The notes under the pieces: generated by a model
What the model was told of the DNA's origin: nothing
What the model saw: the letters and a program-made list of their open reading frames with translations, nothing else
The model's database searches: none
Position numbers and translations under genes: made by a program
IMG/VR virus record: IMGVR_UViG_3300024999_000034
Coordinates: 96,001 to 160,000 of that record
Length of the DNA stretch: 64,000 nucleotides
Reading direction: 5' to 3' (one strand)
Source: a virus
In this document: positions 55,063 to 64,000 of the stretch, in pieces
Layout: every line of letters starts with the position of its first letter
Position numbering within the stretch: position 1 is the first letter of the stretch

Positions 55063-55446
55063 ATGTTGCAACAACAATTTAATCGGGGAGAGATATGGTT
55101 AGTTGATCTTCCATTTACAGGTAATTCAATTCAAGGTGGAGGCATTAGGCCAGTTGTGTTGTGTAGTAATAATATGGCAAATCTACATAGTCCAATTTTA
55201 CATTATGTTCCTCTTACAACTCGTAAGAAACCATCCCTCCCTACTCACACAGAAATTGACACAGATAGCGGAATAATTAGAAAATCTACTGTACTATGTG
55301 AACAAGTTATGCCATTACCAAAAACGGCTTTCAAAGAATGTATAGGATTCTGCAATGAAAAAGTAATGGATAAGGTTGATTTTTGTCTAGCTGTGCATTT
55401 AGGTTTGGTTAAACTTGTGAATAGAAATAATGTTGCTTATGGTTAA
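55063..55446 (+). CDS. mazF: MazF/PemK endoribonuclease, no recognisable MazE
   Basis: RGEIWLVDL..QGGGIRPVV..N..VPLTT..LPTH..CEQV; catalytic Arg and Thr present. Confidence 0.9.
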   Translation: MLQQQFNRGEIWLVDLPFTGNSIQGGGIRPVVLCSNNMANLHSPILHYVPLTTRKKPSLPTHTEIDTDSGIIRKSTVLCEQVMPLPKTAFKECIGFCNEKVMDKVDFCLAVHLGLVKLVNRNNVAYG

Positions 55447-57135: not shown

Positions 57136-57834
57136 ATGGATTTAATCACACTAGCAACAAAAACGACATACAAATTATTCAAAGTAGATGAAGTAATTGA
57201 CTCATTTGATCAAAAACACTTTAATATTGTTAAGATAATAGTAAAAAAATATAGGAATATGGACATTGAAGCAACAAAATCTCAAGTACAACAATTAGCC
57301 GAAAACGGAATTAGGAATTTTTGGAGTGAGTTATTTAAGTATATAATTGTATTATCAATTGCAAGTTATTTTAATATATTTACTCCAACTTTCTTTGTAA
57401 TGAATGCTTTCTCTGTCCTCAGAGCATTGGCTGGTGGCGTACATATGTCTACCATAGGAAAATGCTTTGCAATGATGGTTCTATTCTTCTTATCACTAGG
57501 ATATTTAATTAGTATATTACATATAAATACGTTAGTATTAGTCGTAGGAATATCATTGGGGTCTATATGGAGCATATACATAGCTAAAAAATATTCTCCA
57601 CAGGAAAGACCAGATAAATCAGATAAAGATTGTGATCACGGCAATATAAAAAAGTATAAGACAATAAAGTTTATTAAATTCTCGTATATAATTAGTATGA
57701 TATTAATATTGTTTACTCAAAAATACATAATTGGGATTAGTATATTTACAGGTGTTTTACTTGAGATGGTAACAATTACACCTAGAGGAACGAGATTTTT
57801 TCAATGGATAGATAGTAAGAAGGTGACACTATGA
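57136..57834 (+). CDS. agrB: AgrB-family peptide-cyclising membrane protease
   Basis: LRALAGGVHMSTIGKC (catalytic His and Cys), YSP..RP, multiple TM helices. Confidence 0.9.
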   Translation: MDLITLATKTTYKLFKVDEVIDSFDQKHFNIVKIIVKKYRNMDIEATKSQVQQLAENGIRNFWSELFKYIIVLSIASYFNIFTPTFFVMNAFSVLRALAGGVHMSTIGKCFAMMVLFFLSLGYLISILHINTLVLVVGISLGSIWSIYIAKKYSPQERPDKSDKDCDHGNIKKYKTIKFIKFSYIISMILILFTQKYIIGISIFTGVLLEMVTITPRGTRFFQWIDSKKVTL

Positions 57835-58457
57835 TCGAAGTGGTAGTGTTTACATTCGTTTTTGCATGGTTCAATGGTTATAAGTGGAAGGTATTAAATT
57901 TGTTTAAGCATTGGAGCATATACCCCATTGCACTTACTTGTGTTGCTCATATTTATATTATATATCTTATGGTTCATGGTCAATATTGGTTTATGGAATA
58001 TGCCAAATACATAAAAATTGTATCTATATTACTTTACTTAGGTTTGATTTGTAAATATAAGTTATTCGACATATCTATCTTTAAGAAAATTAATATTAAA
58101 GAGAACCCTATATTAACCCCTTTTACATCTCCTGTTTCTTTAGGTGTATTATGCATGGGTATAGGATCTGTCTTAAATATTATTGCTATGAAATTTAATG
58201 GTTCAAAAATGCCTGTTTTTGCGAGTGTAAGTTTTGGTACAGGATATTCAAAAATAGATATGTTTGATAAAATGTTACAGTATAATGACTTTCATGTATT
58301 TGGAAACAGTGCTACACATTTGATATTTTTAACCGATTTCATAGATATTTTTACATCCATTATGAGTATCGGTGATGTATTAACTAGAATATTTGTTGTT
58401 TTAGTAATATATTACTCAATAAAAGTATGTAATCATAAAGTAATAAATAATATTTAG
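57831..58457 (+). CDS. DUF5317-like multi-pass membrane protein
   Basis: G..LN..A..NG.KMPV..H......L..L.D.I..SIGD pattern; overlaps agrB stop. Confidence 0.7.
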   Translation: MIEVVVFTFVFAWFNGYKWKVLNLFKHWSIYPIALTCVAHIYIIYLMVHGQYWFMEYAKYIKIVSILLYLGLICKYKLFDISIFKKINIKENPILTPFTSPVSLGVLCMGIGSVLNIIAMKFNGSKMPVFASVSFGTGYSKIDMFDKMLQYNDFHVFGNSATHLIFLTDFIDIFTSIMSIGDVLTRIFVVLVIYYSIKVCNHKVINNI

Positions 58458-58486
58458 TTGACAAACAGTGAAGGGAGGTGTATACT
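58458..58486 (+). promoter_or_regulatory. Consensus SigA promoter for the receptor-like gene and agrD
   Basis: TTGACA-17 bp-TATACT. Confidence 0.8.
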
Positions 58487-58525: not shown

Positions 58526-59314
58526 ATGTTGGAAAATATCATTTATTGTGCGTTGAGTTGTATTTTTATCACGATCCCAGAAGACATTTTTCTAATAATA
58601 TTAACGCTAAGATTTATGGGAAGAAAAGAGATGTTGGATTTATACAATATTAAAGAAAATTTAATTTCGATTTTAAAAATTGTTATCCCTTCGGCATTGT
58701 CTTTAAATCTTTTAAATTTTATAATAATGACACCAACTTCAATTAACAAAATAATATCTTATACTATGTTGTATTTGTTATTGGTATACATATTAAAAAA
58801 GAAATCTTTTATTGAATATCCAAAATTATATCAAAAAGCTTTTCTATATTTTATCTTAAGTATATTAGTAATAATAGCTATTGAAATTATTACCTTGCCA
58901 ATTATATTTAAATTAGTTAATAAAACATATAAAGAAATTCAGGTAAATTATTATTTAGTCATAATATGTTCTCTGTCTTCTAGAATTATAAATCTAATAA
59001 TATTGTTCACTATTTTTATGAAGAAGAATAGTAAATTTCAAATAAGTATTGGTAATTATATATTTAATAATAAATTTTTCACAAGATTATTGATTGGTGT
59101 CACGGCAGGATTGGTTGTATCTGAGGCATACTTTGTCAAGTTAATTTTGTGGAATAACTTTTTAAATATCATTCCAACAATTTACGAACAATTGTTGTTA
59201 GTTATAAGTTTTACTTTTTTAGTACCAAGTTTGATAATTTCAATAGTTTATTCTTGTATAAATTATTGTGTTATGATTATTAATAGTGAGAAGCAGACTT
59301 TCAGAAATGACTGA
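58526..59314 (+). CDS. Multi-pass membrane protein resembling an AgrC/VirS sensor domain, without a kinase domain
   Basis: About 7 hydrophobic segments; between agrB and agrD; paralog of 60533; no H-box or HATPase motifs. Confidence 0.6.
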   Translation: MLENIIYCALSCIFITIPEDIFLIILTLRFMGRKEMLDLYNIKENLISILKIVIPSALSLNLLNFIIMTPTSINKIISYTMLYLLLVYILKKKSFIEYPKLYQKAFLYFILSILVIIAIEIITLPIIFKLVNKTYKEIQVNYYLVIICSLSSRIINLIILFTIFMKKNSKFQISIGNYIFNNKFFTRLLIGVTAGLVVSEAYFVKLILWNNFLNIIPTIYEQLLLVISFTFLVPSLIISIVYSCINYCVMIINSEKQTFRND

Positions 59315-59353
59315 TCTGATTTTTCAAATACATTATAGAAGGAGGTGAAAATA

Positions 59354-59461
59354 ATGAAAAAGAATATCGTAATTGGTTTTGTAGCAATCGCTGCTTTTGC
59401 AGCAGTAATGTCTTCAATGGTAGTTTGGCATCAATCGGAAACTCCTAGTTGTATCGCGTAG
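59354..59461 (+). CDS. agrD: AgrD-like cyclic-lactone autoinducer propeptide (missed by ORF track)
   Basis: MKKNIVIGFVAIAAFAAVMSSMVVWHQSETPSCIA; RBS AAGGAGGTG; HQ.E.P tail typical of clostridial AgrD. Confidence 0.82.
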   Translation: MKKNIVIGFVAIAAFAAVMSSMVVWHQSETPSCIA

Positions 59462-59477
59462 TACATATCCATGATCT

Positions 59478-59507
59478 AAGGAGGGAGTATTTATACTCTC
59501 TCCTTTT
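59478..59507 (+). terminator. Intrinsic terminator after agrD
   Basis: AAGGAGGGAGTAT-tt-ATACTCTCTCCTT followed by TT. Confidence 0.7.
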
Positions 59508-59535
59508 GAATTATAAAATAATTTTTATAATACTA

Positions 59536-59565
59536 TTGACATATTATCCACTGTTGTAGTATAGT
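59536..59565 (+). promoter_or_regulatory. SigA promoter for the HTH-MazF gene
   Basis: TTGACA-18 bp-TATAGT. Confidence 0.65.
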
Positions 59566-59617
59566 AATATAAAGTAAGAAATTACGAAATATTATATTTA
59601 CAAATTATGAAGGGTGG

Positions 59618-60439
59618 ATGATTAATATGTTTTTCAATACAAAAAAGAGAAATGAGACTGTTAAATCAAATGAGGCAAAGGATTTCAAGAAGCTTGCAAA
59701 CTTAGTAAAAATAGCCGTTGGAAGCAATACTATTTCAGAGTTTGCAAACAGATGTGGTATTCCAAATTCAGCTAAAAGTATTGCTATGATTACTCAAGAA
59801 AAAATAACTACATACCCAGAAGTCGGTTTGCTTAAAAAAATTGCTTTGGGTTCTGAATTTCGAGTATCTTTTAATGATTTAAGGATTGCATGTGGTTATG
59901 ATTTAAATGATACAGGGATTGATCTTAGAGGTGTAAAAGCTATGAGGGGTTGGATTGCCTTATGTAACTATGGGAACGTTTTAGACTCAGAACAATCTGG
60001 AATTAGGCCTTCCTTAATAATTTCCAATAATATTGGGAATGAGAGAGGGACTATTTTGATGGCAATTCCTTTATCTAGTAAAATAATGAAAAATACTATG
60101 CCGACCCACGTCAGAATTGGCCCCAAAGACTGCGGATTGGCACAAGAGTCAGAAATTTTAGTTGAGCAGATGCGTGTAGTATCAAAAAGTCGTTTAATGA
60201 TTGATGGGTTCATTCAACCAATTTGTGAATGTCCTGAAGACATACTCCGTAAGGTAGAAATAGCCATCATGAAGGAAACTGGTATGGTGAATACTAGAGC
60301 CAATGAATCTACAGTAGATAGATTCCTTGATAAACTTAATGAATATGTAAATAAAGCAGAAGAAAGTCGTATCAATCACATTCAAAGCAATAATCGCAAC
60401 ACAATTCCACAACAACAGAGAGTAGCATCTTTTGCATGA
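59618..60439 (+). CDS. XRE-type HTH fused to a MazF/PemK domain
   Basis: N-terminal TISEFANRCGI..YPEVGLLKKIA..LRIACGY; C-terminal RG..SEQSGIRPS..SNNIGN..AIPLSS..PTHV..L..ES.IL.EQMR. Confidence 0.85.
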   Translation: MINMFFNTKKRNETVKSNEAKDFKKLANLVKIAVGSNTISEFANRCGIPNSAKSIAMITQEKITTYPEVGLLKKIALGSEFRVSFNDLRIACGYDLNDTGIDLRGVKAMRGWIALCNYGNVLDSEQSGIRPSLIISNNIGNERGTILMAIPLSSKIMKNTMPTHVRIGPKDCGLAQESEILVEQMRVVSKSRLMIDGFIQPICECPEDILRKVEIAIMKETGMVNTRANESTVDRFLDKLNEYVNKAEESRINHIQSNNRNTIPQQQRVASFA

Positions 60440-60444
60440 ATATA

Positions 60445-60497
60445 ATATAAATGGTCATTATATGTCCTTCTTATTATAATATAATGACCATTTATAT
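60445..60497. promoter_or_regulatory. Perfect 19-bp inverted repeat containing a possible promoter (or terminator)
   Basis: ATATAAATGGTCATTATAT-15 nt-ATATAATGACCATTTATAT; TGGTCA(60452)-17-TATAAT(60475). Confidence 0.65.
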
Positions 60498-60532
60498 ATA
60501 CCAAAAATAAAAATAAAAAGGAGTACGCCTAT

Positions 60533-61333
60533 ATGCAAGCAATTACAAATGCCATCCTAAACACCATATTCGTTGGCCTCCCTGAAGAAATGTTCATTGT
60601 AATAATCACATTATCACTTCTAAAAATCAATGATCTGCTAGACATCTTAATGTGGAAACGTAGTCTAACATGGATTATGCTCACAGCATTACCCGTAGCA
60701 ATAATGGCAAATATCTTCAAATATATTATCATAGTACCAAAACAAAATTCTATATTGTCAATTATGTTATTTATGATAATTCTTATGCAATACATAGTCA
60801 TCACCAATAGTTTCAAAGTAAATTTTTCACTAATATTTAAAACAGCAATCTACACAATCGCAAGCTTTGTAATTGTAGGAATCATTGAATATGCTTACTG
60901 TCCACTTCTATTAGCATTATTAGAAAAACCATATAGTTTTTTCAATGATAATGTAATGTACAATATCCTATGGGCTATTCCAATCAAAATTCTACACTTA
61001 TGTATTGTTTCCTTAATTCTAGTGAGAAAAAATAGCAAAGTAAAAATTAATCTGTTTGACTCAATTATTAGAAATAAATTTATTGTTAGTGGTTTGTTGC
61101 TAATATTAGCAACCAGAGCATTAGTAGTTAATTATATCAATAAATTAGTGGAAAATAATAGCATCATGATTCAATTACAATTTATTGATGAATTAATTGC
61201 TATTGTTATAATCACATCAATTCCAGTAATATTTGTCACATGGTTATTAATGGTAATCAATCATTATTTATGTAAAGAGAAAATGGCTCTGTTGGTTTGT
61301 GAAGGAGTTAGTGGAAATGATGACGGTGAGTGA
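60533..61333 (+). CDS. Second AgrC-sensor-like membrane protein, kinase-less paralog of 58526
   Basis: IFVGLPEEMFIVIITL vs IFITIPEDIFLIILTL; shared K(I/F)Q/N(L/I)...I.N.F linker. Confidence 0.6.
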   Translation: MQAITNAILNTIFVGLPEEMFIVIITLSLLKINDLLDILMWKRSLTWIMLTALPVAIMANIFKYIIIVPKQNSILSIMLFMIILMQYIVITNSFKVNFSLIFKTAIYTIASFVIVGIIEYAYCPLLLALLEKPYSFFNDNVMYNILWAIPIKILHLCIVSLILVRKNSKVKINLFDSIIRNKFIVSGLLLILATRALVVNYINKLVENNSIMIQLQFIDELIAIVIITSIPVIFVTWLLMVINHYLCKEKMALLVCEGVSGNDDGE

Positions 61334-61984: not shown

Positions 61985-62022
61985 GATATTAATATTATTT
62001 TAATGTGAAGGAGAGATATTTA

Positions 62023-63390
62023 ATGCTTAAAGAAAAATCAGTTGAGTTAATGCAAGAATTAAATCCATTGATCGTTAAATATTCTAGTAATGACAAGGTA
62101 AGAAAAATAATTTTAAATGAGTTTTCCAAAAGGAATATGAGTGGTCGGTTGGCACTATCTATTTTAAACGAGAAAAGAGTATTATCAACATTAGATATCG
62201 ATGAAGGGAAAGACTTGATATTATTATTTGTTTTTACTAGTGCAATGTACAATGCATTGACATTTAAAGAAGCAGATGATAAAGAACCTTTGGGAGAAAT
62301 AGAAGAGTCATTTAAAATAACTCTCGAAAACTATTTTACTGAAATTGAGATTGAAAGTCTATTAAACCACACATTTGAAAAAAAAGTTGATGAAAAAGAT
62401 GAGGCTATTGTTTTTCCAAAAATGAATTTGATTGCTCCTGGATTTTATTCTGGGTATATGTCTGGAAAACATTTTGCTGAATTAGATGCTGGAAATGAAT
62501 TCATCTATAATTTTAAAACCCAGCGTGATCCAATTATTAATGTATCTGGAATGAAAGAAATACATTTAAATAAGAAAAACGCAAAAGAAATTAGAGATGG
62601 TTTGCTTTCAGGCGATCAATTCCCAACTACTATAGTGGTAAATGTTCTTCGAGATGGATCAGACGAAATAATCTACAACGAAAAAAATGGAGACTTGACT
62701 ATTGTTTCAGGAACTAAAAACCTTGTTGACGGAATGCATAGAAAAGTGGGTAATAGCTTAGCCCTTGCTCTTAATCCAGATTTGCAATTTAATTGGTTGT
62801 TAGTTGTGATAAACTATAGCGAGGTTAGAGCGCAAAAATATATGGTTGAAATTAACAAGCAACAAAAAATGAAGCAGGAACATGTTGATAACATGGATAC
62901 TTCTAATCTTGGAAACATTGTTGTAGACAACATTAAAGATATTGACAACGCTGAATTCTCTGGGCATATTAAAGACAGCGATAAAGAACTAGAACATGGT
63001 GGTATGGTAAAAAAATCAACATTAGCAACTAGTATAGAAGAGTGTTACAAGGATAAACTAACTAATAAAATTGAAGCAAAAAAGATAGCAAAGCATATTG
63101 CTAATGTTGTAGATTATGTTATAGGATTACACGCAGAAGAGTTTATAGAGCATTCTGAAGCTACTAAGAAAGAAAGTTATATCAATCATAAGAATATGTT
63201 TGCAGGATATGTTGCCTTATCTGAAAGATTATATGAAGTAAAGGATTGGGAAGATTTATTAGAAGAAATTCTTAATCAAATTGATTTTAGTGTTAAAAAT
63301 TCTTTCTGGAAAGATATTGGAATATCAGATTCAGATATGAAAAAGTCTACCAGAAACAATTTATATAAATTCTTTCAGAAATTAGTTTAA
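62023..63390 (+). CDS. yopQ: SPbeta YopQ/SroE-like repressor (DndB/ParB-like DGQHR-type fold)
   Basis: NFKTQR..LVDGMHR..INKQ motifs; size about 460 aa; directly upstream of a YopR-like gene. Confidence 0.65.
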   Translation: MLKEKSVELMQELNPLIVKYSSNDKVRKIILNEFSKRNMSGRLALSILNEKRVLSTLDIDEGKDLILLFVFTSAMYNALTFKEADDKEPLGEIEESFKITLENYFTEIEIESLLNHTFEKKVDEKDEAIVFPKMNLIAPGFYSGYMSGKHFAELDAGNEFIYNFKTQRDPIINVSGMKEIHLNKKNAKEIRDGLLSGDQFPTTIVVNVLRDGSDEIIYNEKNGDLTIVSGTKNLVDGMHRKVGNSLALALNPDLQFNWLLVVINYSEVRAQKYMVEINKQQKMKQEHVDNMDTSNLGNIVVDNIKDIDNAEFSGHIKDSDKELEHGGMVKKSTLATSIEECYKDKLTNKIEAKKIAKHIANVVDYVIGLHAEEFIEHSEATKKESYINHKNMFAGYVALSERLYEVKDWEDLLEEILNQIDFSVKNSFWKDIGISDSDMKKSTRNNLYKFFQKLV

Positions 63391-63424
63391 TTTTTCTAAT
63401 ATTTATTTATAAGGGGTGTTTTAA

Positions 63425-64000
63425 TTGGTTATTAATGAAGTTAATAATGGGTTGCAAAATGAAGAGGTGGTATTTGAGGTTGATTCAGAAGTGAAAAAGG
63501 AATTTCTAGAAAAACAATTAAAGTCAACTAGAAGTTTCTACACTTATGTTCTCAAAAGAGCAGATGAATTTGAATCACAACTTGGGAAAAAGATTTACGA
63601 TTTTAATATTGAAGATCGCGATGAGATGTTGACTGTTCAGTTTAAGAATAAGAATAAATGGACGTTTCAATCTGCATTATCTCCTTTAAAAACTTATGTT
63701 GACTTCTGTATTTCTAAGAATTTAGTTAGACACAATGAAAACAGGTTTATGACTATTCTTCCGTCAGATTATGATGATTATGTTAGTGATCAAGCAAAAA
63801 ACAGTTCTTATATCCCTTTATCAGAATCCAGAGAATTTCAAAAAAGATTAGCAAATGATCAAGATAAATTAATCATTGAATTATCTAGTTTAGGGGTTAG
63901 GGGAAGAACTGAAAAAGGCAATACACTTGAAGAGTTTGTAAATCTCAAAGTAAAAGATATTAAGTGGAAAGATAAGGAATTATGGCTCACTAAAAACAAT
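63425..64000 (+). CDS. yopR: SPbeta YopR/MrpR/SroF-like integrase-fold repressor (5' part, runs off window; TTG start)
   Basis: Manual translation: KKEFLE..FESQLGKKIYDFNIE..YVDFCI..NDQDKLIIEL..GVRG..LEEFVNLKVKDI. Confidence 0.75.
   Translation, partial: MVINEVNNGLQNEEVVFEVDSEVKKEFLEKQLKSTRSFYTYVLKRADEFESQLGKKIYDFNIEDRDEMLTVQFKNKNKWTFQSALSPLKTYVDFCISKNLVRHNENRFMTILPSDYDDYVSDQAKNSSYIPLSESREFQKRLANDQDKLIIELSSLGVRGRTEKGNTLEEFVNLKVKDIKWKDKELWLTKNN

Follow-up and report, generated by a model that had tools for sequence, protein, structure and literature searches.

AgrC, the HPK10 sensor of the agr systems of Staphylococcus aureus and the clostridia, has a polytopic N-terminal domain of ~200-250 amino acids (aa) whose C-terminus lies inside the cell; it is encoded beside agrB and agrD, in the order agrB-agrD-agrC or agrD-agrC-agrB, and is hypervariable together with AgrD, as in the agr specificity groups. 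Here we examine an agr-like cassette from a large Clostridia-type phage, carried on a window (the whole stretch of DNA analysed, 64,000 nucleotides (nt)) that comprises bases 96,001-160,000 of the linear IMG/VR record IMGVR_UViG_3300024999_000034 (180,838 bp, 85% complete by CheckV). The cassette encodes two paralogous transmembrane proteins, TM1 and TM2, which resemble the AgrC sensor domain in all of these respects save gene order, and which lack the histidine-bearing DHp (SPOB_a) helix, the HATPase_c_5 domain and the AgrA partner of AgrC. They belong to a family whose loci are ordered agrB-TM-agrD, and whose own signature, (I/L)-P-E in helix 1 and two conserved prolines, sets it apart from AgrC. 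Are such proteins receptors? We infer a mechanism in which TM1 and TM2, as stand-alone, kinase-less homologues of the AgrC sensor, would act as peptide receptors and pass the signal on by a route other than a phosphorelay, and we give this reading about an even chance.

Phage phiCDHM1 (HG531805) is a Clostridium phage with agrB, agrD and agrC and no agrA (PMC3901668). The present locus is like it in having phage-borne agrB, agrD and a sensor gene without agrA. The differences are considerable: phiCDHM1 is a 54-kb myovirus with a full 453-aa AgrC kinase, whereas the present phage, of at least 180 kb, has a duplicated kinase-less sensor, a MazF fusion and a DUF5317 protein, and tblastn detects no similarity between phiCDHM1 and the cassette of the window. 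Incomplete agr systems are also found in clostridia. Clostridium autoethanogenum has agrD1C1B1 with a spo0E-like gene, and also agrD2C2, agrC2-agrD2 being a receptor-ligand pair (PMC8748961); the agrB1D1 of Clostridioides difficile is an incomplete agr system (PMC8534292, PMC10602386); and Ruminiclostridium cellulolyticum has four agrBD loci (PMC8251862). The family described here shares with these the lack of agrA in the locus, a Spo0E-like neighbour, and receptor-peptide pairs that rely on a single agrB in trans, and differs in that a published system has a real AgrC kinase or else no receptor at all. The agrB and agrD genes of many Clostridia have no AgrC/AgrA pair linked to them, and how their peptides are sensed is a long-standing question. 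A kinase-less AgrC relative paired with agrD is a candidate for that receptor, or else for the missing maturation factor.

A further comparison is with arbitrium (AimR-AimP-AimX) of the SPbeta-family phages, in which a phage peptide signal likewise lies directly upstream of an MrpR-type repressor module. The arbitrium pathway involves a MazF RNase. The arbitrium peptide is linear, and is imported and read by a cytoplasmic tetratricopeptide-repeat receptor, whereas the peptide of the present cassette would be cyclic, made by AgrB and presumably sensed at the membrane. No AimR-like gene was seen in the cassette region, in which no search aimed at AimR was made. If TM1 and TM2 are indeed receptors, phages have a second, chemically different means of peptide communication, which occupies the genomic slot of arbitrium in SPbeta phages and shows pherotype diversification across relatives. 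We class the system as agr signalling with an AgrC-derived sensor that lost, or never had, its kinase, in an undescribed family; in the literature that we searched, with incomplete coverage, no AgrC-like protein lacking a kinase and encoded between agrB and agrD is described.

Relationship of TM1 and TM2 to the AgrC sensor domain

TM1 and TM2 are 32% identical over 202 aa (BLASTP, E 1e-19) and have an N-terminal I/L-P-E motif in common. The AlphaFold2 (AF2) model of TM1 (predicted local distance difference test, pLDDT, 75.9) consists of seven long helices and hardly anything else, and the counts of lysine and arginine in the loops, set against the model helices, fit a topology with the N-terminus outside and the C-terminus inside. 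The original prediction, made from the letters of the window, of two paralogous and almost fully transmembrane proteins of 262 and 266 aa with a common N-terminal motif agrees with the coordinates, the BLASTP result and the TM1 model. Across the family the near-invariant residues are P17 and E18, a Pro-Glu pair in helix 1, together with P150 and P231, and there is no conserved His or Cys. TM2 is closer than TM1 to the bacterial members of the family. Neither protein has a match in Pfam, NCBIfam or PHROGs, and across 77 family members Pfam yielded no more than isolated matches at noise level. PDB fold searches found no match, a PDB sequence-profile search gave only G-protein-coupled receptor noise, and comparison with the ESM Atlas led to unnamed clusters at TM-scores <0.5.

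A protease was also considered. MroQ, a membrane protease of the CPBP/Abi family, is required in S. aureus to remove the AgrD leader, and SpsB also takes part in staphylococcal AgrD maturation. Like MroQ, the TM family is polytopic and agr-linked, and it would fill an unassigned maturation step; it differs in being similar to AgrC and in having no CPBP match. A CPBP/Abi protease of the MroQ type was rejected as a candidate, as PF02517 matches none of the 77 members and, with no conserved His, the EExxxR/FxxxH/HxxxN motifs are not formed.

What, then, are TM1 and TM2 related to? By hhalign the family scored <1% with the AgrC of phiCDHM1 taken as a single sequence, and a signal arose only with profiles of real AgrC. 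These profiles came from HATPase_c_5 kinases of family-bearing genomes, among which one subgroup with a weak signal was widened; it proved to be largely genuine AgrC, with the SPOB_a+HATPase_c_5 architecture and agrB-agrD-agrC operons. The set comprises 32 sensor domains, drawn from 22 genomes in the class, with agrB within 1.5 kb at 16 of the 22 loci. When the family profile headed by TM2 (A2) was compared with the 32-sequence AgrC-sensor profile, the hhalign probability was 94.7% (E 5.9e-8) over 153 collinear columns, in an alignment that starts at the N-terminus of both profiles and spans helices 1-5. The TM1-clade profile alone gave 86.8% (E 4e-6). As controls, the reversed profile gave 0.4%, AgrB 0.1%, and two unrelated groups of kinase membrane domains 0.1% and 11.9%; column permutations, run on an earlier version of the comparison, scored <=13.5 against 37.9. 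A recognised AgrC group that includes the AgrC of phiCDHM1 reaches 96% against the same AgrC-sensor profile, and therefore the likeness among AgrC sensor subfamilies is no stronger than that between them and the family.

The two groups also have specific motifs in common: a Glu in helix 1, (N/G)-R-K-(E/D)-(F/M)-L in the first cytoplasmic loop, I-I-E in helix 4, and S-(I/L)-x-x-(K/R)-x-x-E in helix 5. Run over whole genomes, the A2 hidden Markov model (HMM) matches residues 10-242 of a 453-aa kinase (genome-wide E 2.5e-4) of the SPOB_a+HATPase_c_5 type, whose gene adjoins a Response_reg+LytTR gene. The kinase part, SPOB_a/DHp first, begins at residue 255, and this upholds the proposal that TM1 and TM2 end where a kinase would start. 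In the reciprocal direction, the sole match of the AgrC-sensor HMM among the 420 open reading frames (ORFs) of the phage is TM2 (E 0.013), and in a mix of 350 sequences the same HMM places 22 family members before the first decoy. The description of the two proteins as AgrC-like, also part of the original prediction, is thus borne out by the profile match with its clean controls, by the hit of the A2 HMM on an AgrC-type kinase, and by the specific reciprocal ranking. We think it likely that the family is homologous to AgrC sensor domains, the relationship being remote but well supported.

One might ask whether the likeness to AgrC is merely one of composition. TM1 and TM2 could be unrelated polytopic proteins, of superinfection exclusion or immunity for example, whose linkage to agrD reflects protection. 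Such proteins would account for the lack of any Pfam, NCBIfam, PHROG or PDB match and for the failure of the single-sequence comparison with phiCDHM1 AgrC, and pairs of peptide and membrane-protein genes are typical of bacteriocin immunity. However, the reversed, permuted and other-membrane-family controls fall far below the AgrC match, and that match is collinear from the N-terminus, is accompanied by specific common motifs, and is specific in the reciprocal HMM tests. AgrD-type peptides, moreover, are signals and are not known to be toxins. Descent from something other than an AgrC-like sensor is in our judgement very improbable, and we proceed with TM1 and TM2 as probable AgrC-sensor homologues.

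Absence of a kinase and response regulator

The window was earlier said to hold neither kinase nor AgrA, and the statement can be extended to the rest of the record. Domain searches of the whole record gave no match to LytTR (PF04397), HATPase_c_5, HATPase_c or Response_reg (PF00072), and the same searches were positive in control genomes. A home-made DHp+CA HMM, built from ~40 AgrC-type kinases, found its positive control and nothing in the 420 phage ORFs or in the TM-agrD loci. TM1 and TM2 themselves reach their ends without a DHp/SPOB_a helix or a phospho-accepting His.

How might a phage use a sensor that has no kinase? One answer is that TM1 and TM2 modulate the agr system of the host, either as heterodimers with host AgrC, with a dominant-negative or specificity-changing effect, or as a sink for peptide, the AgrC-AgrA phosphorelay of the host being conventional. 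AgrC acts as a dimer, as established for S. aureus AgrC; many HATPase_c_5 kinases are encoded elsewhere in bacterial genomes with the family; phiCDHM1, also without agrA, must use host parts (PMC3901668); and TM2 does not track the AgrD of its own phage. Against such a role, the family is conserved in bacteria that have their own agrD and an XRE regulator, independently of a nearby kinase, and the AgrC kinases encoded in the same genomes resemble its sensor only remotely, which argues against heterodimers. We therefore hold a decoy or modulator of host agr to be quite unlikely, and prefer TM1 and TM2 as receptors with an output of their own.

The family in Clostridia

Relatives were sought by word-indexed search, by profile search, and by running phmmer exhaustively over 1.84 billion representatives. 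About 150 were found, all of 250-350 aa, fragments aside, with no kinase fusion and no Pfam domain among them. At 18 of 18 bacterial loci (Ruminiclostridium hungatei and metagenome-assembled genomes (MAGs) of Bacillota/Clostridia) the family gene is followed within ~40 nt by an AgrD of 38-44 aa with the pattern ...K-P-A-[C/S]-x4-[H/Y]-Q-P-[R/K]-x-P, and agrB stands before or beside the family gene at 12 of them. In a sample of the genus Ruminiclostridium, 23 of 38 genomes have the family, with AgrD at 25 of the 29 loci. The commonest bacterial order is agrB-TM-agrD, a divergent XRE gene (HTH_3, 110-138 aa, its C-terminal Y-(L/I)-E-L-A motif conserved) and a Spo0E-like gene; no TM-agrD locus has an AgrC-type kinase. 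Bacterial members have ~60 additional C-terminal residues, helical and probably cytoplasmic, that the phage proteins lack. TM-agrD pairs also occur alone without agrB, or in tandem with differing rings and nearly identical leaders (e.g. L065). It seems clear that the family is no peculiarity of phages: its stand-alone proteins are widespread, and take the place of AgrC beside agrB and agrD in many Clostridia as well as in a group of large SPbeta-like clostridial phages.

The position of the gene between agrB and agrD, where it is probably co-transcribed with agrD, raises the question of whether the protein might instead help to make the peptide. An AgrC-derived peptide-binding domain might have been recruited to pass on the product of AgrB, to export it or to trim its N-terminus. 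No enzyme has been named for the removal of the clostridial AgrD leader (PMC8251862), and the co-variation of TM1 with the AgrD ring described below is also expected of a substrate-specific enzyme. Yet canonical clostridial agrD-agrC-agrB loci, which have a kinase, have no such protein, and the TM loci have no kinase; the relationship looks exclusive, not additive, and we favour a receptor because the family and AgrC kinases appear to exclude each other from agr loci. A second reason is that TM-agrD units duplicate with almost the same leaders and changed rings (L065), much as in agrC2-agrD2 (PMC8748961), and a leader peptidase would not need that. Third, there is neither a conserved His or Cys nor a match to CPBP or any other peptidase family, and the conserved helix-1 Glu is common to AgrC sensors and so is not the mark of a new catalytic centre. 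On these grounds an accessory of biosynthesis or export seems unlikely to us, and peptide reception remains the function that we favour.

Several bacterial loci depart from the common arrangement. A more divergent subfamily keeps the TM-agrD-XRE triad. Two divergent members, L132 and L133, lie in one genome of 4,068,724 bp (G007:C1, ~3.35 Mb and ~1.14 Mb), each followed by an AgrD of 48 aa whose core is rich in Cys, and adjoining a 136-aa XRE gene. Four Bacillota MAGs (L011, L013, L014, L018) have a second TM-agrD pair without agrB or XRE, and a complete agrB-TM-agrD-XRE locus elsewhere in the same genomes; the second pair of L011 adjoins BrxC/D ATPase and DEAD-box helicase genes (BREX-like), and the neighbours in L013 and L018 are of similar size. 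In a Eubacterium sp. MAG (L024:6001-6869, also L071) the family gene is split into frames of 70 and 205 aa, perhaps as a pseudogene or through an error of assembly; an intact agrB-agrD-agrC operon (L048) is present in this MAG. A bacterial subclade of ~320 aa (L067-L070) has no AgrD-like ORF downstream and may consist of orphan sensors.

Variation among the phage cassettes

The cassette agrB-DUF5317-TM1-agrD-MazF fusion-TM2 is conserved, with agrB in the same position, in >20 related metagenomic phage contigs, and DndB-like and MrpR-like genes follow it wherever the contig is long enough. A tblastn search of 50,697 GenBank phages with TM1 and AgrB found no match, and neither did megablast with the cassette. 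The agrD of the window encodes 35 aa from an ATG behind GGAGG, with a predicted ring of S-M-V-V-W followed by HQSETP. All complete related cassettes contain an AgrD of the pattern [S/C]xxx[W/F](H/N/Y)Q(S/P)xTP, and within it the ring is hypervariable and the flanks are conserved: there are at least 13 versions of [S/C]xxx[W/F], with Ser commoner than Cys (the window, L109-L129, L003, L026 and L027). This variation looks like diversification of pherotypes. The bacterial AgrDs linked to the family likewise use Cys or Ser.

Do other parts of the cassette vary with the ring? Between the window and the related locus L109, identity is 97% for the MazF fusion, 85% for AgrB, 70% for DUF5317, 65% for TM1 and 52% for TM2. 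Over eight distinct cassettes, identity falls as differences in the AgrD ring rise for TM1 (Spearman rho -0.55) and DUF5317 (rho -0.53), and TM2, AgrB and the MazF fusion show no such co-variation. In locus L110 a fusion 93% identical to that of the window goes with a Cys-type ring and a different TM1, which fits an exchange of TM1-agrD units between phages. To judge from these comparisons of sequence, TM1 and the phage AgrD are likely cognate partners. DUF5317 is translationally coupled to agrB and varies as strongly as TM1. A phmmer search of the 18 bacterial agrB-TM-agrD loci did not detect it; it is specific to the phage cassette, in which it may be a phage-specific component of maturation, export or sensing. 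The two paralogs were first thought to flank agrD. For TM1, which ends 40 nt before agrD, this is correct; between agrD and TM2, however, lies the 273-aa MazF-fusion gene.

TM2 seems to have a different companion. In locus L119 (5923-7614) a further TM2-like gene (277 aa, 43% identical to the TM2 of that locus) adjoins a further gene resembling the MazF fusion (258 aa, 42%), and this paired duplication ties the type of TM2 to the MazF fusion: the one appears to track the other and both appear to duplicate as a pair. TM2 is apparently co-transcribed with the fusion. In the fusion protein itself, an N-terminal domain (residues ~1-105) with no family assignment is joined to a PemK/MazF RNase domain (110-218), and the C-terminal helix is conserved. 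This helix, at ~226-254, is mostly invariant in 12 sequences. This gene had been labelled HTH-MazF. The MazF half of the label stands, on the Pfam match listed in Table 1; the helix-turn-helix (HTH) half finds no family match in Pfam, and the AF2 model, in which five N-domain helices are predicted, is of low confidence (pLDDT 48 overall, <50 in residues 1-108). By hhalign the N-domain scores 0.6-3% against the XRE neighbours of the bacterial family members, and no XRE protein of that subfamily is encoded among the phage ORFs.

A possible signal path

What route could the signal take? AgrB, perhaps with DUF5317, would convert AgrD into a five-residue (thio)lactone peptide, which TM1 would bind outside the cell. 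With no kinase at hand, the signal would pass by protein contact, the likely route being TM2, possibly in a TM1/TM2 heterodimer, and from TM2 it would reach the MazF-fusion protein encoded alongside. The RNase activity of the fusion, or an activity in binding nucleic acid, might then bias the adjacent DndB-like/MrpR-like lysogeny module. In the bacteria, the conserved divergent XRE regulator would be the equivalent output partner. The original prediction had also proposed that the sensors might directly control the MazF fusion or DUF5317.

A number of observations weigh against TM1 and TM2 as receptors of this kind. The homology to AgrC is remote, at ~14% identity, with hhalign confident only over helices 1-5; a bacterial-only profile (A3) reaches only 26% against the AgrC-sensor profile, and the PDB contains no AgrC membrane domain for comparison of folds. 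Almost nothing of the phage proteins lies in the cytoplasm to make contact with a partner. By an inner-versus-outer test, TM1 is conserved no more on its cytoplasmic side than on its outer side, and therefore, outside loop 1 and the C-terminal tail, there is no evident conserved surface for docking in the cytoplasm. The co-variation of TM1 with the AgrD ring is based on eight loci that are not independent, and the N-domain of the fusion is not demonstrably DNA-binding. Finally, bacterial genomes with the family hold 9-23 matches to AgrC-type kinases elsewhere, and because so many unlinked kinases are encoded there, one of them may supply a relay in trans in those bacteria.

If direct contact is nevertheless the means of output, a more general scheme can be drawn, which we put forward as tentative and somewhat doubtful. 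There would be a phosphorylation-independent branch of agr, in which peptide acts through direct contact on an XRE regulator in Clostridia, possibly affecting sporulation by way of the Spo0E-like protein, and on the MazF fusion and a lysis-lysogeny switch in SPbeta-like clostridial phages, with swappable TM1-agrD pherotypes.

Organisation of the locus

The window has ~28% GC. From 55 to 64 kb its + strand carries an orphan PemK/MazF gene, a DUF4379/NUMOD1 endonuclease-like gene, agrB, DUF5317, TM1, agrD, the MazF fusion, TM2, a 117-aa ORF, and the DndB-like and MrpR-like genes (Table 1). Of the promoter-like sites in this region, the best three lie directly before TM1, the MazF fusion and the DndB-like gene. 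These sites are consensus matches only, and the region overall is not enriched in them. The sites before TM1 and the MazF fusion, with the hairpin and T-run after agrD, suggest that TM1-agrD and MazF fusion-TM2 are separate transcription units, on the basis of these matches to consensus.

Table 1. Features of the agr-like cassette, in window coordinates
Feature	Position	Strand	Basis or remark
AgrB, membrane cysteine peptidase/cyclase for AgrD processing	57136..57834	+	Pfam PF04647, E 2.8e-24
DUF5317 membrane protein	57831..58457	+	Pfam PF17248, E 8.9e-16; start overlaps agrB stop
Promoter-like site before TM1, TTGACA-17-TATACT	58458..58486	+	11/12 consensus matches; in DUF5317-TM1 gap
TM1, 262 aa, probable kinase-less homologue of AgrC sensor domain	58526..59314	+	
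agrD, cyclic-peptide precursor, ~35-38 aa	59354..59461	+	TIGR04223, 19.1 bits (cut-off 19)
Terminator-like hairpin after agrD, 8-bp stem including one G-T pair, then TTTT	59480..59507	+	read by eye; simple scanner did not call hairpin
Promoter-like site before MazF fusion, TTGACA-18-TATAGT	59536..59565	+	11/12 consensus matches; intergenic
MazF fusion, 273 aa	59618..60439	+	PF02452, E 5e-21; phrog_1936
TM2, 266 aa, paralog of TM1	60533..61333	+	

The surroundings of the cassette have features of their own. The stand-alone PemK/MazF gene upstream (127 aa, 55063-55446) has no recognisable antitoxin and is kept at the same place in related phages; the DUF4379/NUMOD1 endonuclease-like gene precedes agrB in some contigs, and in others agrB is directly adjacent. 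Directly downstream of the agr cassette is a lysogeny module of the SPbeta type, a DndB-like gene followed by an MrpR-like repressor of recombinase type (PF22822, E 3.6e-13), located at 62005-64000 of the window and at G000:C1:159425-160471 (L130:26-1072).

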